Notes under the pieces: model-generated
Told to the model about the DNA's origin: nothing
Database searches by the model: none
What the model saw: the letters and a program-made list of their open reading frames with translations, nothing else
Shown here: positions 1,801 through 49,976 of the stretch, piece by piece
Layout: every line of letters starts with the position of its first letter
How positions within the stretch are numbered: the first letter of the stretch is position 1
Assembly (NCBI GenBank): GCA_040757625.1
Contig: JBFLWU010000007.1
Span: 66,163-130,162 of the forward strand
Direction: 5' to 3'
DNA length: 64,000 nt
Source of the DNA: Thermodesulfobacteriota bacterium
GTDB lineage: Bacteria > Desulfobacterota > Desulfobacteria > Desulfobacterales > JARGFK01
Made by a program: the position numbers and the translations under genes

Positions 1801-1890
1801 ATGAAAAACGGATTGGCCCTTATCAACCTTATTAGCCTAATTATTATCCTCGTAGTCGGTGTACTTCCCTTCTACGAGGCACGGGGTTGA
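1801..1890 (+). CDS. 29-codon Ile/Leu/Val-rich leader peptide (MKNGLALINLISLIIILVVGVLPFYEARG)
   Basis: ATG at 1801 and TGA at 1888-1890. The peptide has 15 I/L/V residues out of 29, including the run LIIILVV. It sits between a promoter and a terminator directly upstream of ilvD. It is too short for the ORF track. Confidence 0.7.
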   Translation: MKNGLALINLISLIIILVVGVLPFYEARG

Positions 1891-1896
1891 TAATGG
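1886..1896 (+). promoter_or_regulatory. putative antiterminator segment of the ilv attenuator
   Basis: GTTGATAATGG (1886-1896) overlaps the leader stop codon. It can pair with the terminator 5' arm CCGTTATCAGC (1930-1940) over 11 positions, two of them G-U. It mimics the terminator 3' arm GCTGATAACGG. Confidence 0.55.
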
Positions 1897-1922
1897 CCTA
1901 AAACCAAATCATATCTTAACTT

Positions 1923-1965
1923 AAAAAAACCGTTATCAGCCCTAAGCTGATAACGGTTTTTTTTT
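1923..1965 (+). terminator. rho-independent terminator of the ilv attenuator
   Basis: The 11-bp perfect stem CCGTTATCAGC / GCTGATAACGG (1930-1940 and 1946-1956) has the loop CCTAA. It is followed by T9 (1957-1965) and preceded by A7. The RBS GGAGG (1967-1971) and the ilvD ATG (1981) follow. Confidence 0.85.
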
Positions 1966-3651: not shown

Positions 3652-3806
3652 GTGAAAGGCTGAAGGCGGACAGTCTGAAGGTCAAAGGGATAGTAACGAG
3701 TATATAGTGACTAGGGACGAATGGCTCGCGGGCAGACAACAGACAGAAGGAAGAAGGCCCTGACCTTGACCTTATCCTTCAGTCTTCAGCCTTCAGCCTA
3801 TTTACC
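3652..3806. repeat. intergenic heptad-word palindromic element (exemplar)
   Basis: About 16 consecutive words ending in AG, mostly 7 nt (gtgaaag gctgaag ... acaacag acagaag gaagaag), are followed by complementary CT-initial words (cttcagt cttcagc cttcagc) and the end motif ctatttacc. Confidence 0.7.
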
Positions 3807-3889
3807 TGAACACTGGGAAGCCAAGAATTAAAAATCAGTTTCAGGCTCATGATGGTGAATAAAAAATAGATGAATGAAGGAAACAGATT

Positions 3890-5575: not shown

Positions 5576-5576
5576 A

Positions 5577-5718
5577 ATAGACTAAAGGCCGAAGGTGGTG
5601 GATAGGTGGAAGGTTGAAAGGATAGCGACGAGGAACAAATGGCGAGTAGGCAGAAAGCAGCCGGCTGTCGTAACGAGCGGTAATATAAGTCTTCAGTCTT
5701 CAGCCTTCGGTCTAAATG
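5577..5718. repeat. intergenic heptad-word palindromic element
   Basis: Left part: aaaatag actaaag gccgaag ... gtggaag. Right part: tcttcag tcttcag ccttcgg tctaaat. It shares the core GAAGG..GGATAG(Y)RACGAG with element 3652-3806. Confidence 0.65.
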
Positions 5719-5796
5719 CCTGACCCCCCTCCTGCCAACGGGAAATGGGAATATGAATTTAAGGATTTAAACGAACACAGCAGAAGGAATATCATC

Positions 5797-6285
5797 ATGA
5801 CAGAAGATAAACACGTGCTTTCAATTCTTGTGGACAATAAGCCCGGAGTGCTTTCCAGAATCGCAGGGCTTTTCAGCGGCAGAGGTTACAATATCGAAAG
5901 CCTCTGCGTCGCCGAAACCACTGAGCCCCTGGTGTCCAGGATCACGATCGTCACCAAGGCCAACACTCTGGGAATTGAGCAGATCAACAAACAGCTCAAC
6001 AAACTGATCAACGTCATCAAGGTGCACGAACTCACCGGCACCGAGTATGTTGAAAGAGAAATGGCCCTGATCAAGGTCAAGGCCAAACCCGAACACCGCG
6101 CAGAGATATTAAGGATCGTGGACATATTTCGGTGCAAGGTGGTGGATGTGGGGCTGGAGCACTACACCATCGAAATCACCGGTGATGAAGGCAAATTGTC
6201 GGCGATCATCAGCCTGCTCAAGCCCATTGGAATAAAGGAAATTGCCAAAACGGGGATCATCGCCCTTTACCGGGAACCCAAGTAG
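5797..6285 (+). CDS. ilvN: acetolactate synthase small (regulatory) subunit
   Basis: ACT-domain start MTEDKHVLSILVDNKPGVLSRIAGLFSGRGYNIESL. The ATG at 5797 has the RBS AGAAGGA. The track ORF start at 5716 would read out of repeat DNA. Confidence 0.9.
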   Translation: MTEDKHVLSILVDNKPGVLSRIAGLFSGRGYNIESLCVAETTEPLVSRITIVTKANTLGIEQINKQLNKLINVIKVHELTGTEYVEREMALIKVKAKPEHRAEILRIVDIFRCKVVDVGLEHYTIEITGDEGKLSAIISLLKPIGIKEIAKTGIIALYREPK

Positions 6286-11638: not shown

Positions 11639-11848
11639 GCAGGGAAAATAGGCTGAAGACTGAAGGTAGATAGGCTGAAGGATAGTTGTCCGTAGTCCGC
11701 GGATAGAATTTCACCGGACAATGAACGACCTTTCGGTTGTATGCTCAAGGAAGGGCGGTAAACAATGGACAACAGAAGGCTGAAAGCCGCAAATGGTTAG
11801 TCCCGTCGCGCGGGATTGAACCTTCAGCCTTCAGCCTTCAGTCTGATC
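11639..11848. repeat. intergenic heptad-word palindromic element between convergent genes
   Basis: Left part: aaaatag gctgaag actgaag gtagatag gctgaag gatag. Right part: ccttcag ccttcag ccttcag tctgatc. Confidence 0.7.
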
Positions 11849-11857
11849 ACCAACCGG

Positions 11858-13366: not shown

Positions 13367-14266
13367 ATGAAAAGAATTCTGGGAATAATCGCTTCCCCGC
13401 GCAAGCTGGGGAACTGCGAAATTATGGTTAAGGAAGTCGGCCGTCAAATCACGACGCCGCATGAATTGCGTCTGCTGCGCCTTTCGGAATTCAATCTGCT
13501 GCCCTGTCGCGGATGCTACGCCTGCCTGTTCAAGGAGGAAAAATGCATCCAGAATGACGATTTCCAGCAGGTGCTCGACGCCATCCTGGAAGCCGATGCC
13601 CTGATTGTGGCCGCCCCCACCTATTTTCTGGGCGCCAATGCAACTTTAAAGCGGCTTCTTGACAGGGGACTCGCCTTTTATGCCCATATCGATAGGTTGT
13701 GGGGAAAACCGGCTGTTGGGATCGCCATTGCCGGTATTGCCGGTAAAGAGGGGCATGCCCTCCTGGGAGTTCAAAATTTTTTAAAGATGTCCCTTACGGA
13801 TATCAAACAAACCCGAATCTGTTACGGGGCCCTTCCCGGCGAGGTCTTTTTAAACGGCCCGAACCGGGCGGCCGCCGCCGACCTGGCCGCGGCCCTCTTT
13901 GCGCCGGCACCGCGCAAAACAGGACCCGTCTGCCCCCTGTGCGGCGGCGATACCTTTCGTTTTTTGGGAAAGGATCGGGTTCACTGCCAGCTCTGCAGCA
14001 ACCCGGGAATCCTCCGCCTGGAGGCGGACGGGCCGGTGTTTGATATTCAAAAAAGCGGGCATGAACTTTTTTTAAGCAAAGAAGAGGCCCTGCATCACAA
14101 GGAGTGGCTGCTGCAGATGAAGGCTCGTTACCTGGACCAGAAGGAAAAGCTCAAGGAAATCACGCTGGCGTACCGCAAGCCCGAAGACTGGATCAGACCG
14201 GCTGAAGTACAGGTGTCAGGGGCCGGGGATCAGAAAAAAACTGAAGGTGAACGACTGGAGGTTTAG
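13367..14266 (+). CDS. iron-sulfur flavoprotein (Isf / NADPH-dependent FMN reductase-like) with a C-terminal zinc-ribbon extension
   Basis: Flavodoxin-like N-terminus (ILGIIASPRKLGNCE), the compact Cys motif CRGCYACLFKEEKC (CX2CX2CX7C) and the extra CPLCGG...CQLCS. The tail codons derive from repeat words. Confidence 0.65.
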   Translation: MKRILGIIASPRKLGNCEIMVKEVGRQITTPHELRLLRLSEFNLLPCRGCYACLFKEEKCIQNDDFQQVLDAILEADALIVAAPTYFLGANATLKRLLDRGLAFYAHIDRLWGKPAVGIAIAGIAGKEGHALLGVQNFLKMSLTDIKQTRICYGALPGEVFLNGPNRAAAADLAAALFAPAPRKTGPVCPLCGGDTFRFLGKDRVHCQLCSNPGILRLEADGPVFDIQKSGHELFLSKEEALHHKEWLLQMKARYLDQKEKLKEITLAYRKPEDWIRPAEVQVSGAGDQKKTEGERLEV

Positions 14267-14307
14267 GTTGAGGTTGAGGTTGAGGTTGAGGCTAAGGTTG
14301 AGCTTCA
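14260..14307. repeat. hexanucleotide tandem repeat (GGTTGA)n, 8 units, 4 of them perfect
   Basis: ggttta ggttga x4 ggctaa ggttga gcttca. It overlaps the TAG stop of the flavoprotein gene (14264-14266). Confidence 0.9.
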
Positions 14308-14485
14308 GCTCCCGATCCAACCCCGGCTTCAACCTTTTACTTCCCGGCTTCCCCGCCTTAAACCGACAGCCGTCGGCCTTGCGCCGTGCGCCTTGAGTCT
14401 TTTTCTTCTTACTGCTTCCTGCCTGCCGTATACTCCCTCCTGTCTTTCTCACCCGCAACTCGCAACACGCCTCTCACCGACCGCT

Positions 14486-16075
14486 CTAATCAACTACCGG
14501 ATATTTTAAGGAAAAACTGTCGGTTTCCGGATCATAGCGCAAACATGAATTCCGGCGCCAGCGGGCATCGTCAGTACGGGGATATTCGCTGCGGATAAAA
14601 GCACCCCGGGTTTCTTCGCGGTCGAGGCCGGCGGTTAAGACGGCTTTCAAGACGAAGGCCGCGCTTTGCAAATCGACCTTAAGTTTTGTTTCACTGATGT
14701 TCCGTGGTGTGTTTTGCCGGATGTGTTTCCCGACCGTTTCAAGTTCGGCCAGCCCGGTTTGCATTCCCTCCTTATCCCTGATAACCCCTGCGTATGCCCA
14801 GGCAATCTCCCTTAGCTGCCGGCGCAAATCACCAAGCATGACGGTTGCCGGCCCGGCCGGCGTCGCCGGCGGCCGCTTTCCACAAACAGGTGCGTCAAGG
14901 GGCCGGTGCTCTTTGAGCGCACTGGCCGCGGCATTGCGGCCGGCGATTCTCCCGAAGACAATACATTCCGTCAAGGCATTGCCGCTCATGCGATTGGCGC
15001 CGTGAAGACCCCAGACCGCTTCGCCGCAGGCAAAGAGGCCGGGTCTATCGGTGCGTCCGTCCGGGGCGATGCGCACACCGCCCATGAAGAAATGGGCGCC
15101 CGGCAAAACGGTAACCGGTTTGTTTATAAAATCAAACTTTATTTTCTGAAGCAGGGACAAAGGGTAATCGTTCCAAAATTTTGCCGGCACCTGGCGGCAG
15201 TCCAATTTAACCGGCCCGGCAACACTTTCCCTCAAAATAATTTCTGAGAACCGGTCCCTTTTTTTGCGCATGGCTTCGTTCAGACTGCTGTCTCCGTATT
15301 TTTCGATGATATCTTCCCCGGCCGCATTGAGCAACCGGAATTCCTGCGGATAAGGAGGATAAACCATCATGGCGGCTATTCGCGGTTCCGCCAGAACAAT
15401 GGGGTAAAATTGAACAAACTCCATGTCCCACAAGTCAAGACCGGCCCTGGCCGCCAGATAATAGCCCTGCCCCATCATGCTTTTCTGGTTGTCATTGCGA
15501 AGGTAGACGGCCCCGCCGCCGCCGGTGGCCAGAACAACAGCCGGGGCGGCTATGGACAGGAGCCGGCCGGTTCCATCAAAAGCGCTCACCCCGCAGACGC
15601 CGCTTTCAGACTGAACGATATCGGTGACATAACATCCGGTGACCCGTCGAAGCCGCGGAAGAGAACCGATTATTTGCGCCATTATTCTGGTCAGGCTCGT
15701 CCCCCGCATCACATCCGAACGGGTGCTTTTATAAAAATAGTGATCGCGAAAAATTTCCAGATCGATTCCGATGGATTGCAGAAATTCAAAAGCGGCCGGC
15801 GCTTCCTCGGCCACCTGAAGCACCATCTGCTCCGAATTGATGCCCCTGCCGGTATGGAAGGTGTCCCGGATGAACTGTTCCCTGGTGTAACCGGGGGTCG
15901 GCCCCGCAAAACGTCCGTTCGACATGGCGGAATTGGTGCCGGTGCCGATGGCGCCCCGGTCCGCCAGGACAACCCGGGCCCCCTCGGCATGGGCGCTGTA
16001 GGCCGCCGTCATTCCGGCCAGCCCCCCTCCGATGATGATAACATCGGTGTTTAACACATGACTTGCGTTTAACAT
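14486..16075 (-). CDS. FAD-dependent oxidoreductase of the fumarate reductase / succinate dehydrogenase / L-aspartate oxidase flavoprotein family
   Basis: DVIIIGGGLAGMTAA dinucleotide fold, GLFACGEAV.GLHGANRMSGNAL, and C-terminal ETRGAFIRSEYP. Confidence 0.8.
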   Translation of the reverse strand: MLNASHVLNTDVIIIGGGLAGMTAAYSAHAEGARVVLADRGAIGTGTNSAMSNGRFAGPTPGYTREQFIRDTFHTGRGINSEQMVLQVAEEAPAAFEFLQSIGIDLEIFRDHYFYKSTRSDVMRGTSLTRIMAQIIGSLPRLRRVTGCYVTDIVQSESGVCGVSAFDGTGRLLSIAAPAVVLATGGGGAVYLRNDNQKSMMGQGYYLAARAGLDLWDMEFVQFYPIVLAEPRIAAMMVYPPYPQEFRLLNAAGEDIIEKYGDSSLNEAMRKKRDRFSEIILRESVAGPVKLDCRQVPAKFWNDYPLSLLQKIKFDFINKPVTVLPGAHFFMGGVRIAPDGRTDRPGLFACGEAVWGLHGANRMSGNALTECIVFGRIAGRNAAASALKEHRPLDAPVCGKRPPATPAGPATVMLGDLRRQLREIAWAYAGVIRDKEGMQTGLAELETVGKHIRQNTPRNISETKLKVDLQSAAFVLKAVLTAGLDREETRGAFIRSEYPRTDDARWRRNSCLRYDPETDSFSLKYPVVD

Positions 16076-16306
16076 GGCGTAAAATATTGATACCCGTAGG
16101 TTGTTGCCCGTTGTTCGTTGAAGCGCTATCCACGTACGACCGGATTGCTGCTTACTGCTTACAGCCGACCCCCGGCTTGCCCCTGACTTCTGTATCCTGA
16201 CACCGATCCCGCACCGCTACCGGTAACCCGTAACGCGCAGCCGGCCATTTGCCGCTTTCACCCGTTACGATTTCCCTTCAGCCTTCAGTCTATCCGCCTC
16301 CAGCCT

Positions 16307-18106
16307 TTAATAGTAGTACCAGATCGACCGGTAGTCGGCCAAATTTTCGCCCCGGCCTTTCAATCTTTTTAAATAATCATAGATCGGGACATCCGTGTAT
16401 ACATAGGTATCGGCCAGCGACAATTGCTTTTCCCAGGGGTGAAACTCATAGACCCTGCTGCCGTCGGGCAGAATGGAAATGACATCATGGTGCTGGGTGG
16501 CACGCAGGTAGTTTTTTCCCAGACCGGGGACGTTGAAGACGATTTCATCGGTCCGGTCGGTCCCCGGCAGGAGGCGGGCTTCCTCCTTCTGCTCCTGCAG
16601 CAGACGTGCAATCGGCACCCGGTAATCGTCTGTTTCCTCCTTGCCTTTGGTGTTAAAGGTATAGTAGGGCGTCACACCGATTAAACGCAGCCGGTGGCGC
16701 AGGGCAGCAGCTTCGAATTTTCTGGAATTGTAGAAGGTATAAACGAGCTGGTTGTATACCTCGATGCCGTAGCGGCGAAATTTTTGAACCGCCGCCATTG
16801 CCTGGGGCGTAATTTCGTATGGATGCTCGAAATGGGTCACGATGATGATTTCACGCTTGCCGGGATGATGGAAATGATTGATGTCCCGCACCAGGGAATC
16901 GGTAATGCGCTGGGGCAGCGTCACCGGGGTGCGGGTGCCGATCCGAATCCGGTCGATGTGTTTAATGCGCGACAGCCGGTATAACAGGTTTTCTATTCTG
17001 GCATTTGACAGTAGCATGGGATCGCCGCCGGTGATAAGGACCTCGCTGATCTCCGGCGTTGCAGCGATCCATTCAATCGCTTTTTTCAGCTTTTCCTTGG
17101 GCAGGGTTGCGGCCGGCGAATATACGTCTTCGATTTCCCAGTTGCGCTGGCAATACACGCAGATTTGCGGACAGGTCAGCATGGGCTTGAGAATCACAAT
17201 CCGGGGATAGCGCCGGGTAATGCCCTCGATGGGTGAAGTGTTCCGCTCCAGCATGAAATCCATCGAGCACTCGGAAGCATCTCTGAGTTGTTTCAACGTT
17301 TGAACATAATGAAGGGTTGGAATCACCTGGGCCCGCAGAGCCGCATCGTTGCCGTTAACGGATTGATGGTCGAGCAGCGACAGGTAATACGGCGTGATGC
17401 CGAAGGCGATTTTATATTCACGCGCCAGTTTAACGGCCTGATACTCCTCATCCGATAGTTTGACGAGCGCATTCAGGGTTTCAGCGTCTCTGACAATGTG
17501 CCGGGTCTGCCACTGCCACTGATCCCATTCAAGTTCGGTGGCGCCGAAATGCTTCAATATCCGGGCCTTGTGGCTGATTCTGTAGCGAATCACATCGTGA
17601 TCCAGCCCATGGGGATACCGTTTCAGGAATGCATCGGCCGAAGCGGCCATGCGCGAGAGATCGGCGGATCGTAAGATTGCGGCCCTGCGCCCCTCGTATC
17701 TTGTAAACGCCGGAATCTTATCGGGATAAATTCCGGCCCTGCCCACAACGCCCTTGATCAGGTGCTCCACTTCGGCCAGAAAACCGGGCCCGGGATCAGG
17801 CTGATCCTTTAGATCGAACCCGTTTAGAAGGGCGTCGATATACCTCAGGAAACTGAATCCGGCCAGCTGTTCACTGCGAACCGACAAGATATTGCGAAAC
17901 ACGCCGATGGCATCGCGGGTTAAAACCCATTCCAGCGGTGGAAGAGCGGGGTTGTCTTCAAATGTCGCCATCAGCATATCCGATAAAAGCATTTTGATTT
18001 TTTTTCTTTTGGCTTTGACGGGCTCCCTTGAAATAAAGATGGATGCAAGGGCGGGTACCTGATGTACCAGTTGAACCAGTTTTTTTCTGGTACTTTCAAT
18101 TTTCAT
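16307..18106 (-). CDS. KamA-family (lysine 2,3-aminomutase-like) radical SAM protein with a ~250 aa N-terminal extension
   Basis: CPQICVYCQR (CX3CX2C) followed by the KamA-like EVLITGGDP and RIGTRTPV. The length is 599 aa. Confidence 0.85.
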   Translation of the reverse strand: MKIESTRKKLVQLVHQVPALASIFISREPVKAKRKKIKMLLSDMLMATFEDNPALPPLEWVLTRDAIGVFRNILSVRSEQLAGFSFLRYIDALLNGFDLKDQPDPGPGFLAEVEHLIKGVVGRAGIYPDKIPAFTRYEGRRAAILRSADLSRMAASADAFLKRYPHGLDHDVIRYRISHKARILKHFGATELEWDQWQWQTRHIVRDAETLNALVKLSDEEYQAVKLAREYKIAFGITPYYLSLLDHQSVNGNDAALRAQVIPTLHYVQTLKQLRDASECSMDFMLERNTSPIEGITRRYPRIVILKPMLTCPQICVYCQRNWEIEDVYSPAATLPKEKLKKAIEWIAATPEISEVLITGGDPMLLSNARIENLLYRLSRIKHIDRIRIGTRTPVTLPQRITDSLVRDINHFHHPGKREIIIVTHFEHPYEITPQAMAAVQKFRRYGIEVYNQLVYTFYNSRKFEAAALRHRLRLIGVTPYYTFNTKGKEETDDYRVPIARLLQEQKEEARLLPGTDRTDEIVFNVPGLGKNYLRATQHHDVISILPDGSRVYEFHPWEKQLSLADTYVYTDVPIYDYLKRLKGRGENLADYRSIWYYY

Positions 18107-20162: not shown

Positions 20163-20444
20163 TTAAAATCGTCTCGGTTTAAACGGTTTTTTTGCGCGTT
20201 TGCCCCCCGGGTTCGCCGGGTTTACCTTGATATTCTTCCCTTCGATGAGTTTCCCGTTTAAGGCCTTGATCGCCTGGTCCGCTTCCGAATTGTTCGGCAT
20301 TTCCACGAAACCGAAACCTTTCGATCTGCCGGAAAACCGGTCCATGATGATTTTGGCGCTTTCAATTTCGCCGAACTCGGCAAACAGTGCTTTTAATCCG
20401 TCCTCGTTAAGGCTGTAAGCTAAATTGCCCACATAAATATTCAT
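20163..20444 (-). CDS. RRM-type RNA-binding protein
   Basis: RNP2 IYVGNL, RNP1 KGFGFVEM, and a basic tail. Confidence 0.88.
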   Translation of the reverse strand: MNIYVGNLAYSLNEDGLKALFAEFGEIESAKIIMDRFSGRSKGFGFVEMPNNSEADQAIKALNGKLIEGKNIKVNPANPGGKRAKKPFKPRRF

Positions 20445-20509: not shown

Positions 20510-20553
20510 TTGAAAAAACAAAGGGCACTCCTCCCCTTTCGAAGGAATGCCCT
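20510..20553 (-). terminator. rho-independent terminator downstream of the cold-shock gene
   Basis: The minus-strand stem AAGGGCATTCC / GGAGTGCCCTT has one G-U pair and is followed by TTGTTTTTTC. Confidence 0.65.
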
Positions 20554-20572
20554 TTTGAATCAGAAGCCGGAA

Positions 20573-20773
20573 TTAGATCACCGTGACATTCACAGCTGCA
20601 GGACCTTTTTGTCCTTTTTCAATGTCGAATGTAACCCGGTCGCCTTCTTTAAGGGATTTAAAGCCTTCCGCCTTGATTCCGGAATGGTGCACAAACACAT
20701 CCGGACCGCCTTCCTGCTCAATAAATCCGAATCCTTTTCGATCATTAAACCATTTTACAATTCCCTCTGCCAT
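20573..20773 (-). CDS. cold-shock protein (CspA family)
   Basis: [18 protein letters not shown] and VFVHHS. The RBS AGGAGG lies 8 nt before the ATG at 20773. Confidence 0.92.
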
Positions 20774-20948
20774 AATCACATCCTCCTTTCTTGAATTTTC
20801 AATGTCTCAAACTGGAGGATGCCGCACCGGCAAACGAAAAGTTCCTTCAGAAGGAAACGTTCCTGCCCTCTTTGAAGCAGGCTTGAATAGTGATTGATAT
20901 TATCCGCTCTTATAACAGAATGCAAGCTAATTATTTATTTTTTTAAAA

Positions 20949-23737: not shown

Positions 23738-24029
23738 GATTGTCTCCTTTCAATATTGATTCAAAACATTAACATTCGTATTGCCATAAAGACTTTCTGA
23801 CTTTAGCAGGATGATTGATAGACTGGGCGAAAGGCACAAGGCGCACGGCGTACGGAAAAAGCGCATCCCCTCTTTCCTTGAACCGTGGGTCCCTATCCGT
23901 TAGCCATATTTGCCCACTGCTTACTGCCTGTTATTCACTTCTCCCCAATCCCTCTAACCCGCGACCTGCAACCCGTAACGCGTCATTATTATTTACTCGT
24001 TGCTGTTCCCCCTGTACCCAGATCCCTTC

Positions 24030-24560
24030 CTACGGGGCCATCCGCTTAATCGCCTCCATATACTTCTTTTTCTTGCAGCGCGGGCAGGTGGACAAGAGCG
24101 CCGCGATCTCTTTGCGACTTTCCAGGTTCACCAGATATTCCAATTCTTTTTTCGGCATCAGATACCCGCCGCAATCCGGGCACGTGACCGCATAGCGGGT
24201 ATGCCCGCGCTGCAGCATATACGCTCTAAGGTCCGTCATAAAACTTTGAAACAACACCCCGCTAGGGCAGTAAAACGTGCATTCTTCGCAGGTCAGGCAG
24301 AACCAGAAGGCCTCGTCGCCGACTTTGTCGGGTTCAAACAGGATCCGCTCCACAATCGCCCGGGACGACCGGCCGTAATCGTATCGACCGTAAAGATTTA
24401 CCATCGGACAAACGGCAGAGCATTTGCCGCACTCTAAACACAGGTTGAGGCGATAGTCGCTTTTGAATTTCTCGATGCTGCCCCGCTCAAATACCGGTAT
24501 CTGTTTTTTAGCTTGCGATTTCATAATCTTTAGGTGTTTAGCCTGAAGACTGCAGGCCAT
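24030..24560 (-). CDS. HdrC-like 2x[4Fe-4S] protein with a C-terminal zinc ribbon
   Basis: CLECGKCSAVCP and CLTCEECTFYCP, plus CPDCGG...CPRC. An alternative start exists at 24524. Confidence 0.7.
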   Translation of the reverse strand: MACSLQAKHLKIMKSQAKKQIPVFERGSIEKFKSDYRLNLCLECGKCSAVCPMVNLYGRYDYGRSSRAIVERILFEPDKVGDEAFWFCLTCEECTFYCPSGVLFQSFMTDLRAYMLQRGHTRYAVTCPDCGGYLMPKKELEYLVNLESRKEIAALLSTCPRCKKKKYMEAIKRMAP

Positions 24561-24694
24561 TGTTATTGCCTTGTCTTTCGGTTCACATTACCACGATGTC
24601 CGTTGTTTGCTGTCAGTTGTTCGTTGAAACCCTGCTTCGGACAACTGACTTTCAGCCAATCTCTTTCAGCCTTCAGTCTATTTACCTCCAGCCT
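24561..24694. repeat. intergenic heptad-word palindromic element between hdrA-like and hdrC-like genes
   Basis: The left end tttagcctgaagactgcagg (reaching into the 5' end of the longer hdrC-like ORF) matches the right end ctttcagccttcagtctatttacc. There is an internal 12-bp stem gtcagttgttcg / cggacaactgac. Confidence 0.6.
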
Positions 24695-26401
24695 TTATGT
24701 CCGATGCCCCTCCATGCCGGCGCCCACCATGGCCAGGATCTGCTCGTCCGTGAACCCTTTTAACTGCAATGCGCCGCTGAGGCACGATGCTGCGCATAAG
24801 CCGCACCCCTTGCATTCGGTCGAGTTTACCCGGGCGATCCGCACGGTTCCGCCCTCGGAATTTCTGGATTCAATCCAGCCTACCGCGCCGAAGGGGCATA
24901 TTTCAACGCACCGGCCGCAGGCTGAACACCGCAGGGGATTGACCTCGGACGTAAAGGCTTCGGTGACCACCTGCCGCCGGGCCATGGGAACCGCGGCCTT
25001 GGCCGCCGCCGCATACCCCTGGGCAACGCATTCCGAAATATCGGTGGGATACCGGGCGCAGCCCGCGATAAAAATCCCGTCGGCAGGAAACTCCACCGGT
25101 CGGAGCTTTTGATGGGCCTCCATAAAAAAGCCTTCATTGCCCAGCGGAATCTTCAGCATCCGGGACAGCTGCCGGTTATCCTTTGCCGGCACCAGCGGCG
25201 CCGTCAAAACCACCAAGTCGGTCTCCAGGGCAGCCTTTTTGCCCGTCAGTTCATGGATAACCGTTACCTTGCCGGCTTTATTTTGGGCGCCGGTTATCCG
25301 AGGCGGCTGCTCCCGGTTGAAGCGGATGAATTGCACCCCCAGGGAAAGCGCTTTCTGGTAATATTCCTCAAAGATCTTCCCGCAGGCCATCACATCCCGG
25401 TGCAGCACCCTGACTGAGGTTTCGGGCCGCCTTGACTTTATCAGGCTCGCGTTCTTCATGGCCGTTACGCAGCAGAAGCGGCCGCAATAGGTCCGATCCT
25501 GGCTGCGGGCACCCACGCAGTTGATCATGACGACCTGAGTAAAACCGTCATATTTATTTTTAAGACGCTCTTCCAGTTCAAGCTGGGTAATCACATTTGA
25601 GAAACGGCCATATCCCATCAGCCCGTGAGGTTTGAGTTCCTCTGCGCCCACCGCCACAATGATGGTGCCGATATTGAATTCTTCGTCCTGTCCATTCAAC
25701 CGCACAAGCGCCGTAAAGTTTCCGATAAATCCTTTGACGGCCGCCACCTCAGCCTGGAGGTGCACGCGAATGTTGTCATGCCGAGAGACCGCCTCGACCA
25801 GCGGCGTCAGCAACGCGGCGGCGGACTGATCGGACGGAAAAAGGATGTTGACGTTCTGCAAAAGCCCGCCCAGGCGGTTTTGCTTTTCAACGAGCTCCAC
25901 CCGGTAGCCCTGATTGGCCAGGGTCAGGGCGGCTGAAAGACCTGAAACGCCCCCACCGATAACCAGAGTAGCCGGTGTTACCGCCGTGGACTGGTCCTGC
26001 TGGGAGGTCAGCAGGCTGACCTTGGCCACCCCCATTCGAACCAGGTCCTTGGCCTTGGCGGTGGCTTCCACCGGCCGCCCCAGGTGAACCCAGGAGCAAT
26101 GCTCCCTGAGATTGACAAATTCAAAGAGATATTTATTCAGACCTGCCCGTTCGCAATTCTTTTTAAAAAGGGGTTCATGGGTCCGCGGGGTGCAGGAGGC
26201 CACCACCACCCGGTTGAGGTTCCGCTCTTTGATCTTATTGCGAATGGCGGAAAGACCGTCCTCTGAACAGGTATATAGATTCCCCATGGCGCAAACGACG
26301 TTGGGCAACGTTTCGGCATACCTTACCACCTCGGGCACGTTGACCGTACCCCCGATATTGGTTCCGCAGTTGCAGACAAAGACGCCGATTCTAAGAGACA
26401 T
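24695..26401 (-). CDS. hdrA: HdrA-like FAD/FeS protein (heterodisulfide reductase subunit A family)
   Basis: N-terminal IGVFVCNCGTNI, GGGVSGLSAAL FAD fold, and C-terminal ferredoxin CSACGRCVEICP / CKGCGLCAASC. The ATG at 26401 has a GGAG RBS. Confidence 0.85.
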   Translation of the reverse strand: MSLRIGVFVCNCGTNIGGTVNVPEVVRYAETLPNVVCAMGNLYTCSEDGLSAIRNKIKERNLNRVVVASCTPRTHEPLFKKNCERAGLNKYLFEFVNLREHCSWVHLGRPVEATAKAKDLVRMGVAKVSLLTSQQDQSTAVTPATLVIGGGVSGLSAALTLANQGYRVELVEKQNRLGGLLQNVNILFPSDQSAAALLTPLVEAVSRHDNIRVHLQAEVAAVKGFIGNFTALVRLNGQDEEFNIGTIIVAVGAEELKPHGLMGYGRFSNVITQLELEERLKNKYDGFTQVVMINCVGARSQDRTYCGRFCCVTAMKNASLIKSRRPETSVRVLHRDVMACGKIFEEYYQKALSLGVQFIRFNREQPPRITGAQNKAGKVTVIHELTGKKAALETDLVVLTAPLVPAKDNRQLSRMLKIPLGNEGFFMEAHQKLRPVEFPADGIFIAGCARYPTDISECVAQGYAAAAKAAVPMARRQVVTEAFTSEVNPLRCSACGRCVEICPFGAVGWIESRNSEGGTVRIARVNSTECKGCGLCAASCLSGALQLKGFTDEQILAMVGAGMEGHRT

Positions 26402-26692
26402 AATGCTCCGCCGTCCGAAAACCAAACTTTGGCTACCCCCGGAGGGGTTGTGCCCGGTTGGAATTTCATTTGATCATAAAATTCCAAACATCAAATTTTA
26501 AATATCAAAAAAATTCCAATGGCCAAACTCAGAAAAACGGCAGATGCTTTGCCTTTGAAAAGTTTTGGTCATTGAACATTACATTTTGAGATTTGTTTGT
26601 AATTTGTTTTTTGGAATTTGAAATTTTAAACTCCAAAATCCATAAACCGGGGTTTTTCTGCCGGTATAAATCTCCTGCAGAGCAAACCTCGA

Positions 26693-36672: not shown

Positions 36673-37473
36673 ATGACGGAAGATACTCCTCTTATCCTAT
36701 TAGTGGATGATGAGAAAAAATTTCTGGATACGATTTCGGACAGGATCCGACTCAAGGGGTATGAGCCGCTGCTGGCCACGAGCGGCGCCGAAGCCCTGGA
36801 ACTTGCCCGCCGGCACAGGATCTATGCCGCCGTGGTGGATCTCAAGATGCCGGACATGGACGGCCTGGAAACCATTACACGGCTTAAAGAAATCCATCCC
36901 TCCATCAAAACGGTGCTCCTGACCGGATTCGGTGATGAGAAAGCCCGAGAGGCTGCAACAGCCCTTGATACCTCCTATTTTGAAAAAGACGACATGGGCA
37001 GTTTTTGGGATTTCATCAAACTCCCTGTTAAAAAGAAAGTGAATATCCTTCTGGTGGATGATGAGAAAAAGTTTCTGGATACCCTTTCCGGCAGAATACG
37101 CCTGAAAGGTTTCGAGCCGCTGCTGGCCACGAGCGGCGCCGAAGCCCTGGAACTTGCCCGCCGGCACGAAATCTATGCCGCCGTGGTGGATCTCAAGATG
37201 CCGGACATGGACGGCCTGGAAACCATTACCCGTTTAAAGGAAATCCATCCCTCCGTCAAAACGGTGCTCCTCACCGGGTTCGGTGATGAAAAAGTCCGGG
37301 AGGCCGCGGAAGCCATCGCTTCCGACTATTTCGAAAAAGACCGCATGAGCGGGTTCTGGCAGTTCATCAAAAAACTACAGAAAACGCTTGAAGACAGTAT
37401 GGCTGCCGCCGGAATGTCCGACGGCGATACGGAAGGCGCCGCCAAAATTTCTAAAAAGAATAAAGGGGCATGA
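36673..37473 (+). CDS. tandem double-receiver (REC-REC) response regulator with no output domain
   Basis: Two complete REC domains (LLVDDEKKFLDT...VVDLKMPDMDG...) form a 117-codon internal duplication. Confidence 0.85.
   Translation: MTEDTPLILLVDDEKKFLDTISDRIRLKGYEPLLATSGAEALELARRHRIYAAVVDLKMPDMDGLETITRLKEIHPSIKTVLLTGFGDEKAREAATALDTSYFEKDDMGSFWDFIKLPVKKKVNILLVDDEKKFLDTLSGRIRLKGFEPLLATSGAEALELARRHEIYAAVVDLKMPDMDGLETITRLKEIHPSVKTVLLTGFGDEKVREAAEAIASDYFEKDRMSGFWQFIKKLQKTLEDSMAAAGMSDGDTEGAAKISKKNKGA
36694..37395 (+). repeat. 351-bp intragenic tandem duplication (2 units)
   Basis: The offset is exactly 351 nt (GTGGATGATGAGAAAAA at 36703 and 37054). A ~116-nt stretch from 36763 / 37114 is identical except for 3 mismatches within a single 4-nt block. 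Confidence 0.9.
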
Positions 37474-49110: not shown

Positions 49111-49602
49111 TCAGAATACCATCAACCGCATGACGCTGGCTATTTTGGCGGCTGACTGAACCATCTGCGGCTTCTGGAGCATATGCGGCCCGTCAAACAC
49201 CAGCGCCCCGGCTTTACATACCCGTACGCATTCGGGCGAACCGCCGCACAGATCGCATTTAAACGATTTTCCCCGATCTTCGTCAAATCCCATCGCACCA
49301 AAGGGGCAGGCCGAGACGCACATGCGACATCCGACGCATTTCTGATGGGTGATCAGAACCCGTCCCAATTCATCATCCCGAAAAATCGCATTATTCGGGC
49401 ATGCCGCCAAACAGGGCGGATCATCACACTGCTGGCAGGTCATCGGCAGGAAAAAGGAGTCGTCGTTCGACTCTTTTATAACCCGGATACAGGACCGACC
49501 AGGGTTATTCAAGCCGGTTTGCTTCTTGGAGCAGGCGCTTTCACAGTCGCCGCAGCCATTACACTTTTCAGGGTGGATTACTAGGGTATTCGAACTTATC
49601 AT
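49111..49602 (-). CDS. 4x[4Fe-4S]-type ferredoxin, paralog of the AOR-linked subunit at 21009-21503
   Basis: PMTCQQCDDPPC and KCDLCGGSPECVRVC mirror PMTCQQCEDAPC and KCDLCGGDPQCARFC in the aor partner. Confidence 0.8.
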   Translation of the reverse strand: MISSNTLVIHPEKCNGCGDCESACSKKQTGLNNPGRSCIRVIKESNDDSFFLPMTCQQCDDPPCLAACPNNAIFRDDELGRVLITHQKCVGCRMCVSACPFGAMGFDEDRGKSFKCDLCGGSPECVRVCKAGALVFDGPHMLQKPQMVQSAAKIASVMRLMVF

Positions 49603-49790
49603 CCAGTCAACTCCAAATAATTTAAGGCATGGAATATTGTTCATAATAGAGAACTTTTTTTAAATTACTATAAATATTAAAACGCCATCCGTCAATAATT
49701 TTCTTTAAAATATAATAAAATTATTTATATTATTCTGATATAATAATATTTATTTAAGGCGCCCCGATGCATTTCTAATTTTTTAGTAAT

Positions 49791-49921: not shown

Positions 49922-49976
49922 AATTGCACATTTGTGCACATTTTTTTGTGCATTGTGCACAAATTTATGTGCAATT
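49922..49976. promoter_or_regulatory. array of TGCAC/GTGCA half-sites with two perfect TGTGCACA palindromes
   Basis: TGTGCACA occurs at 49933-49940 and 49954-49961, 21 bp apart. The outer inverted repeat is AATTGCACAT (49922-49931) / ATGTGCAATT (49967-49976). Confidence 0.5.

Follow-up and report, generated by a model that had tools for sequence, protein, structure and literature searches.

REP, BIME and REPIN elements of enterobacteria and pseudomonads are extragenic, transcribed and variable between strains, often lie directly behind stop codons in operons, and occur as singlets or as inverted doublets forming hairpins. The STRR sequences of heterocystous cyanobacteria, said to have been described by Mazel and colleagues in 1990, reportedly comprise several lineage-specific families of tandem heptamers in intergenic DNA; in the literature we searched, most citations of them concern their use as a fingerprinting target. 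Cyanobacteria, Xanthomonas, Beggiatoaceae and Geobacter all show an excess of heptamer repeats, whose function has been a puzzle for decades. In Xanthomonas and Nostoc, GGGAATC and GGGGA(C/T)T heptamers lie 0–50 bp from a stop codon or overlap it, with the G-rich strand as the coding strand; a single word type prevails there, with a preference for four units, and the repeats have been shown to form G-quadruplexes (Rehm et al., 2015; PMC4692102). TAACTGA direct repeats occur in marine Beggiatoaceae, cyanobacteria and Bacteroidetes (MacGregor, 2015; PMC4679880). For Geobacter metallireducens, the genome report (Aklujkar et al., 2009; PMC2700814) annotates, as putative global regulatory elements, multicopy sequences of four or five tandem heptanucleotides, with GGGACCG in 49 copies and MTYCTGA at 15 sites.

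In a Thermodesulfobacteriota MAG, we find heptad arrays that occupy entire untranslated spacers, from the stop codon on, in a subset of operons. Within the 64,000-nt stretch of DNA analysed (the window), heptad spacers are limited to 1.5–27 kb, with none at 27–64 kb, the rpoA/secY operon included. The features discussed here are collected in Table 1. Tracts A, B and C are well supported as mosaics in which heptanucleotide tandem arrays, short and degenerate, are strung together with two to four units per word; their words belong to one clade-wide vocabulary (GGCTGAA, GGGTTRC, GCAGTAA, GGATAG-GTAACGAG, GGCNNNN and CAACNNN).

Table 1. Heptad tracts, their words and adjoining genes (window coordinates; types X and Y are explained in the text)
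Feature	Position	Strand	Remarks
ilvD-ilvB spacer element	3652..3815	+	GGCTGAAGG arm, centre, CCTTCAGCC arm; long-hairpin type, same word family
ilvB-ilvN spacer	5576..5715	+	heptads throughout; holds GGCAGAAAGCAG (type Y)
leuA / ytfJ convergent spacer	11639..11851	+	GGCTGAAGG array behind each stop
(GGTTGAG)x5-6	14258..14302	+	tandem repeat finder; from TAG stop of plus-strand FMN-reductase gene
Tract A	14305..14485	-	G-rich heptad mosaic from first base after TAG stop of FAD-flavoprotein gene; convergent spacer
GGCNNNN heptads, tract A	14363..14394	-	heptad layout; GGCGCAC GGCGCAA GGCCGAC GGCTGTC
Type Y words (GCAGTAA), tract A	14405..14423	-	GCAGGAAGCAGTAAGAAG
Type X words (GGGTTRC), tract A	14455..14466	-	GTTGCGAGTTGC; pattern match
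FAD_binding_2 / Succ_DH_flav_C flavoprotein gene	14486..16075	-	Pfam; stop adjoins tract A
Tract B	16076..16306	-	231 nt, ~33 heptads; entire spacer between KamA-family and FAD-flavoprotein genes
Module with C equal to or greater than G, tract B	16097..16125	-	
Type Y word, tract B	16148..16166	-	GCTGTAAGCAGTAAGCAG
Type X word, tract B	16223..16234	-	GTTACGGGTTAC
Stop-abutting element	16277..16306	-	AGGCTGGAGGCGGATAGACTGAAGGCTGAA; common to tract D and ilv/leu spacers
KamA-family radical SAM gene	16307..18106	-	Pfam; stop adjoins tract B
C-rich heptads, transcript sense	23826..23855	-	CCGTACG CCGTGCG CCTTGTG CCTTTCG
Tract C, G-rich part	23870..24029	-	heptad mosaic from TAG stop of ferredoxin-type gene
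Type Y word, tract C	23917..23928	-	GGCAGTAAGCAG
Type X word, tract C	23968..23979	-	GTTACGGGTTGC
4Fe-4S dicluster protein gene	24030..24560	-	Pfam; stop adjoins tract C
Tract D	24561..24694	-	absent from earlier note; same kind of spacer, behind gene 24695-26425; opens with tract B's element

Tracts A–C are 7-nt periodic over their full length, with a lag-7 identity of 0.43–0.52 (z 4.2–7.0; 0 of 1000 shuffles) over a shuffled baseline of about 0.28–0.30; the values are 0.48 (z = 4.7) for tract A, 0.46–0.52 (z = 6.8–7.0) for tract B and 0.44 (z = 4.4) for tract C. The signal decays from 0.45 at lag 7 through 0.38 at lag 14 and 0.35 at lag 21 to the baseline by lag 28, or about three units. Exact period-7 doublets number 16 against 4 expected, and a tandem repeat finder reports rows at 14258, 16148 and 16275. 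The intergenic DNA of 1–27 kb shows the lag-7 signal (0.324), coding DNA does not (0.240), and the tracts themselves lack the 3-nt periodicity of coding sequence (lag-3 identity 0.23–0.33); in a survey of all loci, 17 of 106 tracts fall inside ORFs. We rejected the idea that a tract keeps to a single register throughout, since indels shift the phase and leave position-specific profiles weak. The tracts are also distinct from SSRs in the strict sense, that is, long runs of one near-perfect unit, since they mix several words in two to four degenerate units; cleaner runs occur elsewhere, as (GGTTGAG)x5 at 14258 and as about 20 units in the relative L081. Spurious ORFs arise on the stop-poor strand of the tracts. 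Such tracts also interrupt short-read assemblies; the contigs of two relatives stop within arrays.

An earlier note on this DNA had taken tracts A–C for a discrete second subfamily of heptad elements, in which, read in the transcript sense, a GGGTTRC (type X) word precedes a GCAGTAA (type Y) word at a fixed position relative to stop codons. Much of its description holds: all three tracts lie 3′ of minus-strand genes, the word order is identical in all three, and the quoted words are present within 1–2 nt of their given places, exactly so at 16147–16166, 16220–16240 and 23955–23984; the word cttcttactgcttcctgcc is likewise present, but at 14405–14423 and not at 14407–14425. Tracts A and B directly abut their stops as proposed, whereas the limit then drawn for tract C lies 30 nt away from the stop at 24030, and G-rich heptad sequence runs on from that limit up to the stop. 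A positional preference relative to stops is also present. With two or fewer mismatches allowed, AGCAGTAAGCAG has 7 matches against 2.3 expected, all of them intergenic and on the sense strand of the upstream gene; GTTACGGGTTAC has 3 against 2.2, which is not above chance.

The stronger claims did not survive. The type X words begin 19, 72 and 50 nt after the stop in tracts A, B and C, which is no fixed relation, and 31, 56 and 39 nt separate the two word types. When the common order was tested by local alignment with block-shuffled partners as the control, it did not reach significance (p = 0.27 for A–B, 0.09 for A–C and 0.05 for B–C); three concordant orders from only two anchor words have a chance probability of 0.25. 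Searches between tracts with nhmmer yielded a borderline similarity of A and C (E = 0.074), E = 0.41 for C–B and no A–B match (overall range 0.07–1.1). Nor do the tracts form a group apart, since tract B opens like the ilv spacers and is nearer to these and to tract D than to A or C, and GCAGNAA words also occur in plus-strand spacers. In relatives that were not chosen by the word-order pattern, the two words occur separately, as GGGTTRC arrays without GCAGTAA words in L081 (4507, 5680–5810), L083 and L210 and as GCAGTAG arrays without GGGTTRC words in L206; there is also a GGGTTRC array of about 20 units that, instead of following a stop, is found in a divergent promoter spacer. On the other side, beyond the concordant order and the A–C similarity, a designed pattern matches exactly three window sites against 0 expected, though it was built post hoc, and the same order in a heptad context recurs in the metagenome contigs L087, L181 and L184, though these were chosen by the order itself. 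We thus regard a discrete subfamily of a functional 3′ element, with fixed order and fixed position, as quite improbable. The X-then-Y order in three tracts and a few metagenome contigs nevertheless hints at a composite unit, against pure slippage. L181 carries the ordered pair twice, with a conserved AAAAACATAGTAG linker, and L087, L181 and L184 are the clearly heptad-type contigs among the matches listed in the metagenome scan, with L095 and L108 weaker. The matches listed are mostly an unrelated 67-nt dispersed repeat (WLWD01/WLWI01 assemblies) and chance matches. The deacetylase of L087 has its best named relatives, at ~61% identity, in two MAGs, one of Thermodesulfobacteriota and one of Pseudobdellovibrionaceae.

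From the first base after its stop, tract B opens with an element that is found behind other stops, AGGCTGGAGGnnnATAGACTGAAGGCTGAA. This element is 27/30 identical to tract D and extends to a 47-nt alignment with the ilvD-ilvB spacer (3657–3701); tract D (lag-14 z = 3.0) in turn aligns over 53 nt, at ~85% identity, with the leuA spacer at 11642–11695. The module of tract B in which C equals or exceeds G is present in tract D, L081, L208 and Desulfonema magnum as well. Blocks of 30–160 nt recur at non-orthologous sites, and the 14-mer core AAATAGNCTGAAGG occurs six times in 64 kb against 0.03 expected and otherwise, among 205 loci, only in L081. The ilv hairpin family, with nhmmer matches to the ilvD-ilvB spacer down to E = 2e-14 in relatives, includes a non-orthologous copy, the ilvN-ilvC spacer of L206 resembling the ilvB-ilvN spacer of the window; 14231–14380 on the minus strand is a weak member (nhmmer E = 0.021).

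At orthologous junctions the repeats turn over quickly. The KamA-FAD junction measures 9 nt in L081, 83 nt in L083 and 231 nt in the window; the FAD flavoprotein ortholog in L081 is of equal length (529 aa), the relatives of the KamA-family protein align over residues 1–599, and at the position orthologous to the type X words of tract A, L081 has TGA followed directly by CGGGTTACGGGTTGCGGGTTCA. The ilvD-ilvB spacer is of the GGCTGAAGG hairpin type in the window and L208; L206 carries (GCAGTAG)x7 there, L210 a short version, and L211 56 nt free of repeats. Genomes whose IlvD proteins are 90–94% identical differ in word type, in length and in whether repeats are present at all, and the G-first polarity stays wherever repeats occur. 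The elements are dispensable, since L211 manages with its repeat-free spacer. Heptads are patchy across the phylogeny as they are along the window: D. magnum has six tracts in 21.8 kb, and D. ishimotonii and D. limicola have none in 21.8 kb each. This small sample does not support the idea that heptads are a trait of filamentous Desulfonema, and our literature search found no paper tying D. magnum to intergenic repeats.

These patterns may reflect two processes, with arrays lengthening and shortening by slipped-strand mispairing of 7-nt units and larger blocks being copied between spacers by recombination or a putative mobilising activity. Could the tracts instead descend, in decayed form, from a composite mobile element (REP/REPIN or MITE type) that is spread by a transposase, the heptads being just its internal or terminal repeats? 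Each ilv-type spacer holds one element as an inverted pair that forms a long hairpin, copies are found at non-orthologous sites and differ in presence between close relatives, the 14-mer core is strongly repeated here and recurs in L081, and the REP/BIME elements of E. coli likewise sit just behind stop codons. REP units, however, are imperfect palindromes that are linked to RAYT and lack a 7-nt periodicity, whereas tracts A–C are non-palindromic and unfolded: their RNA folds are no better than shuffles (z = +0.87, −0.66 and −0.86 for A, B and C), single copies of the stop-abutting element are purine-rich and not palindromic, and only the inverted-pair ilv spacers fold (z = −2.7 for ilvD-ilvB). 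Tracts A–C also lack the inverted termini of a MITE, members run from 140 to 240 nt and their centres differ, so that copies vary greatly in length and central sequence. Of the roughly 50 window proteins searched with Pfam, none was a Y1/RAYT or other transposase, though one could be encoded outside the window. Mobility alone would leave the full-length 7-nt periodicity unexplained, and we consider this origin unlikely.

The feature that persists through this turnover is strand polarity. In keeping with the earlier note, which had spoken of purine-rich heptads, G-rich heptads stand directly behind the stops in the transcript sense, and the plus-strand ilv/leu genes follow the same pattern. Every one of the window's 11 heptad-bearing 3′ flanks, with genes on both strands, has G>C on the sense strand (sign test p = 0.001), and so do 7 of 7 in L206, a 94%-identical relative counted with the gene calls of its own record. 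A cruder survey of all loci gave 24 versus 8, and non-window loci only, with crude ORF calls, 17 versus 7 (p = 0.06). The arrays are intergenic and begin 0–20 nt after the stops, and on the way to the next start codon the G-first part often gives way to C- or A-rich heptads. The sense strands of the tracts contain 28–43% G and 14–21% C (43% and 16% in tract A, 38% and 14% in tract C). In the convergent spacer that holds tract A, the (GGTTGAG) run is the G-rich array of the opposing gene. As counter-evidence, C-rich arms in sense orientation are present in the hairpin-type spacers. In tract C the C-rich heptads follow the G-rich part and pair locally with it.

A replication-linked skew was considered and rejected as the source of this polarity, which flips with gene orientation; the cumulative GC skew of the window falls near-monotonically, and its trend is not lastingly changed where gene orientation changes. 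The polarity therefore follows transcription and not replication. Transcription-coupled mutation could in principle impose such a strand bias on slippage-prone junk whose orientation is not under selection. This neutral account fits the fast turnover, the dispensability and the patchiness along window and phylogeny. However, the skew is large (+0.23 to +0.53) and its sign switches from G-rich to C-rich inside single transcribed spacers, which a uniform transcription-coupled bias would not produce, and the polarity stays though the words are replaced. We judge a purely neutral by-product to be quite improbable. Instead, the polarity might be kept by selection on the transcript and not on the sequence.

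Tracts B, C and D would be transcribed as part of polycistronic mRNA; we take them as such because they lie between co-oriented genes (9 nt apart in a relative) with no predicted terminator. On the minus strand, a search for intrinsic terminators (a GC-rich stem-loop with a T run behind it) returned none within 14267–14485, 16076–16306 and 23738–24029. Tracts A–C contain no promoter-like (sigma-70) sites, and Rfam 15 covariance models gave nothing at the gathering threshold in the window and nothing in the tracts at E up to 1. We dismissed the idea that TGA, TAA or TAG in the sense words act as backup stops: every frame of the sense strands contains stops, but stops occur on the antisense strands too, GGGTTRC has none, and the asymmetry is weak.

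The version of selection that we prefer, as a tentative hypothesis with the odds still well against it, is that a long spacer without ribosomes can be tolerated only when poor in C and rich in G, and hence a poor Rho loading site, while its complement favours Rho termination of antisense or convergent read-through. The complementary strand of the tracts is C-rich (C/G about 1.6–2.7), and such an effect would matter in the convergent spacer of tract A, which has no predicted intrinsic terminator. Against the Rho model, a general need for Rho-proof spacers does not explain why heptad spacers occur only at 1.5–27 kb. A stronger form, which we think unlikely, makes the mosaics a strand-specific transcription-polarity device in which composition alone is selected, with the sense strand invisible to Rho and the C-rich complement serving as a Rho loading site; it would explain both word turnover within the genus under a kept G-first polarity and the convergent spacer of tract A without a predicted intrinsic terminator. 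In a variant, the G-rich non-template strand would promote R-loop-dependent pausing behind stops.

Two further functions were considered. First, the G-rich heptads could be an RNA platform for a single-strand RNA-binding protein (RRM, cold-shock, S1 or CsrA) that regulates stability or downstream translation. The RNA is unstructured and purine/G-rich, short motifs recur in it (AAGG/GGAG-type cores among them), the window has genes for an RRM_1 and a CSD protein, and S1, Csp and CsrA have been proposed as binders of the TAACTGA repeats (PMC4679880). Yet genes of the RRM and CSD kinds are common, with no specific link to the tracts, and the words are not conserved at orthologous spacers (GGCTGAA versus GCAGTAG versus none), which argues against a sequence-specific binder; we find such a platform unlikely. 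Second, the repeats could form G-quadruplexes that act on transcription or RNA decay, like the GGGNATC repeats. The G-rich strand is the coding strand behind stops in both cases (PMC4692102), the (GGGTTRC)n arrays of L081, at ~20 units, are G4-capable, and tract C has one relaxed G3N1-12 motif, with an 11-nt loop. However, the canonical G3+N1-7 motif is absent from tracts A–D and from both strands of the entire 64-kb window, most words have only GG, and post-stop arrays of relatives can consist largely of G and T with only one G in each unit (TTGATAA, TGTTTGA), so that a quadruplex function is very improbable here.

Together, these observations are best explained by slippage-made heptanucleotide mosaics that are partly copied between sites and transcribed as C-poor spacer RNA, a reading as a whole to which we give a probability of roughly 60%. 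Conserved polarity combined with unconserved words narrows the possible functions to those that depend on composition or strand and points away from sequence-specific binding. The case is unusually dense, with whole intercistronic spacers of the core ilv/leu biosynthetic operon and of a redox gene cluster made of repeats. Furthermore, D. magnum shows the same architecture and is cultured, with a complete genome, which makes the system experimentally approachable.

Among known repeats, the heptamers that come nearest to the tracts are GGGNATC, TAACTGA, STRR and those of Geobacter. The STRR families are, reportedly, cleaner runs of one unit, whereas our tracts are mosaics, and we know of no description of STRR as mosaics that fill intercistronic spacers with G-first polarity. 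The G. metallireducens elements resemble the tracts in coming from a former deltaproteobacterium and in occupying many loci, amino-acid biosynthesis operons included, but they use other words, have a fixed copy number (four or five) and are in part intragenic; their polarity relative to stops is not reported in the accessible part of that paper (PMC2700814). The TAACTGA repeats are, like the tracts, intergenic heptamer direct repeats of two to six copies in large genomes, strongly oriented to neighbouring genes; in both, the spacers often lack a canonical ribosome binding site and a post-transcriptional role is suspected (PMC4679880). The window word TTACTGC differs from TAACTGA at two of seven positions. 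TAACTGA sets, however, mostly precede start codons by a few nucleotides, and repetition of related heptamers is rare there, whereas the tracts follow stops and use many words, with TTACTGC 62–140 nt after the stop and at least 70 nt from the next start. The heptamers of Rehm et al. (2015; PMC4692102) share with the tracts a 7-nt unit in two to many copies, a non-coding location, rarity between divergent genes, length and sequence that vary between close relatives at one junction, and inverted pairs that can form stem-loops. They also share the placement of the G-rich coding strand within about 50 bp of the stop, which we find at all 11 flanks in the window and all 7 in L206. The tracts differ in joining many word types in two to four degenerate units, in having no canonical G4 motif, and in their Thermodesulfobacteriota host. 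We conclude that they are not a separate new element class, but a further case of the little-understood bacterial heptamer repeats.

The spacers behind three minus-strand genes (tracts A, B and C; see table) consist of short heptanucleotide arrays. The earlier note had these tracts abut the stop codons of minus-strand genes. Its quoted strings were recovered within 1-2 nt, and all three tracts do lie 3′ of minus-strand genes with Pfam support; A and B reach the base adjoining the stop, but C as then delimited falls 30 nt short, and similar sequence runs on through the remaining 30 nt up to the stop. A fourth tract of this kind, D, lies behind the next gene upstream. B, C and D separate co-oriented genes; A separates convergent genes, of which the opposing one, for an FMN reductase, carries a (GGTTGAG)x5 array of its own from the stop onward. 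Tracts A-C are 7-nt periodic from end to end, with lag-7 identities of 0.43-0.52 compared with 0.28-0.30 in dinucleotide-preserving shuffles (z = 4.2-7.0; the observed value was reached by 0 of 1000 shuffles), and lag 14 is raised too. Laid out by sevens, tract B reads as about 33 heptads in succession. Units one step apart share 0.45 identity, those two and three apart 0.38 and 0.35, and at four units baseline is reached; the tracts are thus chained short arrays (2-4 units, differing words, occasional phase slips), of which the word doublets are merely the most visible part. Only the intergenic DNA of 1.5-27 kb in the window has the lag-7 signal (0.324 versus a background of 0.26-0.27); neither coding DNA nor the 27-64 kb spacers show it (Fisher p = 0.0003).

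The arrays have a strand polarity that is real, bearing out the proposal that purine-rich heptads follow stops in the transcript sense, as for the plus-strand ilv genes. Over the 100 nt past each window stop whose spacer is 50 nt or longer, G exceeds C on the sense strand in all 11 heptad-bearing 3′ flanks (sign test p = 0.001), on plus- and minus-strand genes alike, with the array starting 0-20 nt past the stop. The same holds for 7/7 heptad-positive flanks, by the record's own gene calls, in the syntenic relative L206. Skew over these 100 nt ranges from about 0 to +0.53; in two convergent spacers the stretch enters the opposing gene's array and the value is therefore near zero (ytfJ, +0.06; FMN-reductase gene, −0.09); the stop-proximal array itself is G-rich in both. 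Across all loci, a cruder count found G>C in 24 flanks versus 8 (p = 0.007), or 17 versus 7 with the window left out (p = 0.06). C- or A-rich heptads tend to prevail nearer the next start codon (words CCTTCAG, CAACGAA, CCGTGCG). A replication-linked skew could be ruled out as the source: the polarity tracks gene strand, and the window's cumulative GC skew declines almost monotonically and its trend shows no lasting change across the heptad region, so that polarity follows transcription, not replication.

Known signals are missing from the tracts. No intrinsic-terminator-like or σ70-like sites are predicted within A-C, and their transcript-sense folding is no better than that of shuffles (z = −0.66, +0.87 and −0.86). 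The tracts contain no canonical G-quadruplex motif, no 3-nt periodicity and no Rfam match at the gathering threshold or at E up to 1. The plus-strand ilvD-ilvB spacer differs: two GGCTGAAGG arrays, inverted relative to each other, form a long hairpin there (fold z = −2.7). In such ilv/leu spacers the stem would bring the stop near the next start, which could allow translational coupling. Upstream of ilvD, a strong terminator hairpin with a T9 run (fold z = −3.9) comes after a 29-codon ORF (MKNGLALINLISLIIILVVGVLPFYEARG) whose product is rich in Ile, Leu and Val. Gene calls for ilvN orthologs give 162 aa against 189 aa for the mechanical ORF, in which the ACT domain begins at residue 33, and the ATG at 5716 lacks a Shine-Dalgarno sequence; translation probably starts ~80 nt further downstream, and the heptad spacer before ilvN would therefore exceed 140 nt.

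Tracts A-C had also been taken for a distinct second subfamily of heptad elements, with shared word order and a fixed relation to stop codons; neither is supported. GGGTTRC words (transcript sense) begin 19 (A), 72 (B) and 50 (C) nt past the stop, and their spacing to the GCAGTAA words is 31, 56 and 39 nt. In local alignments against partners shuffled as 14-nt blocks, shared order gave p = 0.27 (A-B), 0.09 (A-C) and 0.05 (B-C), and nhmmer gave E = 0.074 (A-C), 0.41 (C-B) and no A-B match. Tract B is far nearer other spacers than A or C: its first 30 nt past the stop (AGGCTGGAGGCGGATAGACTGAAGGCTGAA) are identical to those of D at 27/30 positions, and 47 nt are alignable to the ilvD-ilvB spacer. 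Furthermore, D aligns to the leuA spacer over 53 nt (~85% identity), the core AAATAGNCTGAAGG has six copies in the window versus 0.03 expected and one in relative L081, overlapping a stop codon, and GCAGNAA words occur in plus-strand spacers too (at 1658 and 5649). The ilv spacers of hairpin type do form a genuine repeat family: nhmmer E-values go as low as 2e-14, and L206 has one copy at a non-orthologous junction. Our preferred view is that A, B and C are additional mosaics out of one common vocabulary; A and C may be distant paralogues. Among the metagenome matches listed for CTTACTGC-N35-65-GYAACYCGYAAC, most are chance matches or an unrelated 67-nt dispersed repeat (CTTACTGCCGTTCAGCTGATCGCCACCATTTTCCAAGCATAAGTAACAGTCTTACGTAACCCGTAAC) without 7-nt periodicity, on >70 contigs of one assembly project (L084-L203, WLWD01/WLWI01). 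Heptad-type spacers with GGGTTRC-then-GCAGTAA order among them are L087 (stop ... GTTACGG ... GCAGTAAG ... start), L181 (two units joined by a conserved AAAAACATAGTAG linker) and L184. Such matches, selected by order itself, leave the idea of a composite unit alive but do not establish it.

Positions of tracts, genes and other features (window coordinates unless a comparison locus, L, is named; L009 and L207 are Desulfonema magnum CP061800)
Feature	Position	Strand	Remarks
Tract A	14305-14485	-	
Tract B	16076-16306	-	
Tract C	23870-24029	-	
Tract D	24561-24694	-	behind gene 24695-26425
FAD-binding flavoprotein gene	14486-16075	-	5′ neighbour (transcript sense) of A
KamA-family radical SAM gene	16307-18106	-	precedes B; relatives align across residues 1-599
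4Fe-4S protein gene	24030-24560	-	precedes C
Likely ilv leader-peptide attenuator	1801-1965	+	hairpin and T9 run 1929-1965
Hairpin-type ilv/leu spacers	3652-3815, 5576-5715, 1555-1719, 11639-11851	+	GGCTGAAGG array past stop paired with CCTTCAGCC array before next gene
ilvN ORF	5716-6285	+	
ilvD-ilvB spacer	window		238 nt, hairpin type
ilvD-ilvB spacer	L208/L209 (IlvD 93% to window)		236 nt, hairpin type
ilvD-ilvB spacer	L206 (IlvD 94%)		171 nt, (GCAGTAG)x7 straight after stop
ilvD-ilvB spacer	L210 (IlvD 90%)		158 nt, short hairpin type
ilvD-ilvB spacer	L211 (IlvD 90%)		56 nt, repeat-free
GTTGTCC/GGACAAC module	24596-24650	-	
GTTGTCC/GGACAAC module	L081 4552-4600; L208 6560-6633; L207 19091-19160		L207 copy is in the ilvC spacer
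D. magnum arrays	L009 20745-20870, 11797-12200; L207 17909-18043		same architecture, other words
Contig ends in arrays	L082 4138-4150; L002 1885-1971		directly past KamA stop
RRM_1 RNA-binding protein gene	20163-20444	-	adjoins cold-shock gene
Cold-shock (CSD) gene	20573-20779	-	sub-threshold match to cspA thermoregulator 5′ UTR, 20521-20861 (60.9 bits; gathering score 78)
AT-rich heptad array	26562-26661		AAATTNC/CAAATTA type
Putative operator site	49925-49973		two copies of 21-nt TTGTGCACAAATTTATGTGCA, TGTGCA/TGCACA palindromes; divergent spacer 49111-49644 (-)/50172-50828 (+)
351-nt tandem duplication	36703-37371		85% identity; in gene with two response-regulator receiver domains

Heptad tracts are patchy among 80 Desulfobacterales loci, and across all loci their density has a median of zero; tracts are common in D. 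magnum, a few MAGs and the window's clade (L081-L083, L206, L208, L210), with none in 21.8 kb each of D. ishimotonii and D. limicola. KamA is about 70% identical to that of cultured relatives such as Desulfonema, and arrays of differing words begin at KamA ortholog stops in different lineages: TAA then (TTGATAA)x5 in D. magnum, a TGA inside (TGATGTT)n in L002, GGGTTGC GGGTTAC ... in L083, and AGGCCGAAGG... followed by the contig end in L082. The short-read contigs of L082 and L002 end inside these arrays, which suggests that assemblies break at heptad repeats and that MAGs under-represent them. The RRM gene also neighbours the KamA cluster in L082. Length at the KamA-FAD junction varies from 9 nt (L081) through 83 nt (L083) to 231 nt (window), and the ilvD-ilvB junction likewise differs in state across the five entries compared; words are thus replaced, and elements gained or lost, within a genus. 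G-first polarity is kept wherever repeats occur. Words are conserved at orthologous sites for GGGTTRC past the FAD gene stop (window and L081) and past the KamA stop (window and L083). Since one GGGTTRC array of L081 (~20 units) occupies a divergent promoter spacer, these words are not tied to stops. GTTGTCC/GGACAAC heptads make up a second shared module, arranged as an inverted pair (GTCAGTTGTCCG ... CGGACAACTGAC); tract B has only the CAACGAACAAC half. In D. magnum, examples are stop-(GTGATTA)n ... (AATCACA)n-ATG and, past the ilvN stop, (AGAGGCA)x3 then its complement. The AT-rich array of the window, whose lag-7 identity reaches 0.69, precedes the start of gene 24695-26425 by 140-230 nt; it is unlike the G-rich post-stop arrays and resembles the (AATCACA)n arrays reaching start codons.

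Together, these observations establish periodic, mosaic tracts with an intergenic location and a strand polarity, free of RNA structure and known signals and turning over rapidly, and blocks of 30-160 nt have been copied between sites. The arrays would arise and change via slipped-strand mispairing of 7-nt units; polymerase slippage has been invoked for the excess of heptameric SSRs seen in bacteria (summarised in PMC4679880, PMC4692102). B, C and D are presumably transcribed within operons, since the genes on either side lie next to each other in relatives and predicted terminators are lacking. Selection on the transcript might then maintain polarity, a tentative step to which we give a probability of about 0.25-0.3. 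In our preferred version, an untranslated spacer of 130-290 nt would be tolerated only when C-poor, as its low sense-strand C (14-21%; G 28-43%) would make it a poor Rho substrate, and the C-rich complement would help to halt antisense or convergent transcription. Unconserved words with conserved polarity fit selection on the transcript, as do the hairpin-type spacers, in which sense C-rich arms follow a complementary G-rich arm able to pair. Such selection does not explain the regional clustering of heptads.

The classical case of heptanucleotide repeats is the cyanobacterial STRR. The closest precedent for our tracts is the GGGNATC-type heptamers of Xanthomonas and Nostoc, which lie on the coding strand 0-50 bp from a stop or overlapping it, vary among close relatives, can form inverted pairs and have no known function (Rehm et al., 2015, PMC4692102); those repeats form G-quadruplexes, for which the window tracts have no canonical motif. 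Oriented TAACTGA repeats lie mostly immediately 5′ of start codons (MacGregor, 2015, PMC4679880), and multicopy heptanucleotide-repeat elements occur in Geobacter metallireducens (Aklujkar et al., 2009, PMC2700814). REP/BIME elements are alike in their location behind stops and their singlet/inverted-doublet organisation, but their units are palindromic and lack 7-nt periodicity. In the literature searched, no paper describes repeats of this kind from Desulfonema or Desulfobacterales. The earlier observation was thus largely accurate; the interest lies in conserved polarity versus unconserved sequence, and a cultured organism with the same architecture, D. magnum, is available. The tracts are a new, lineage-specific instance of a known, functionally unexplained kind of bacterial repeat.
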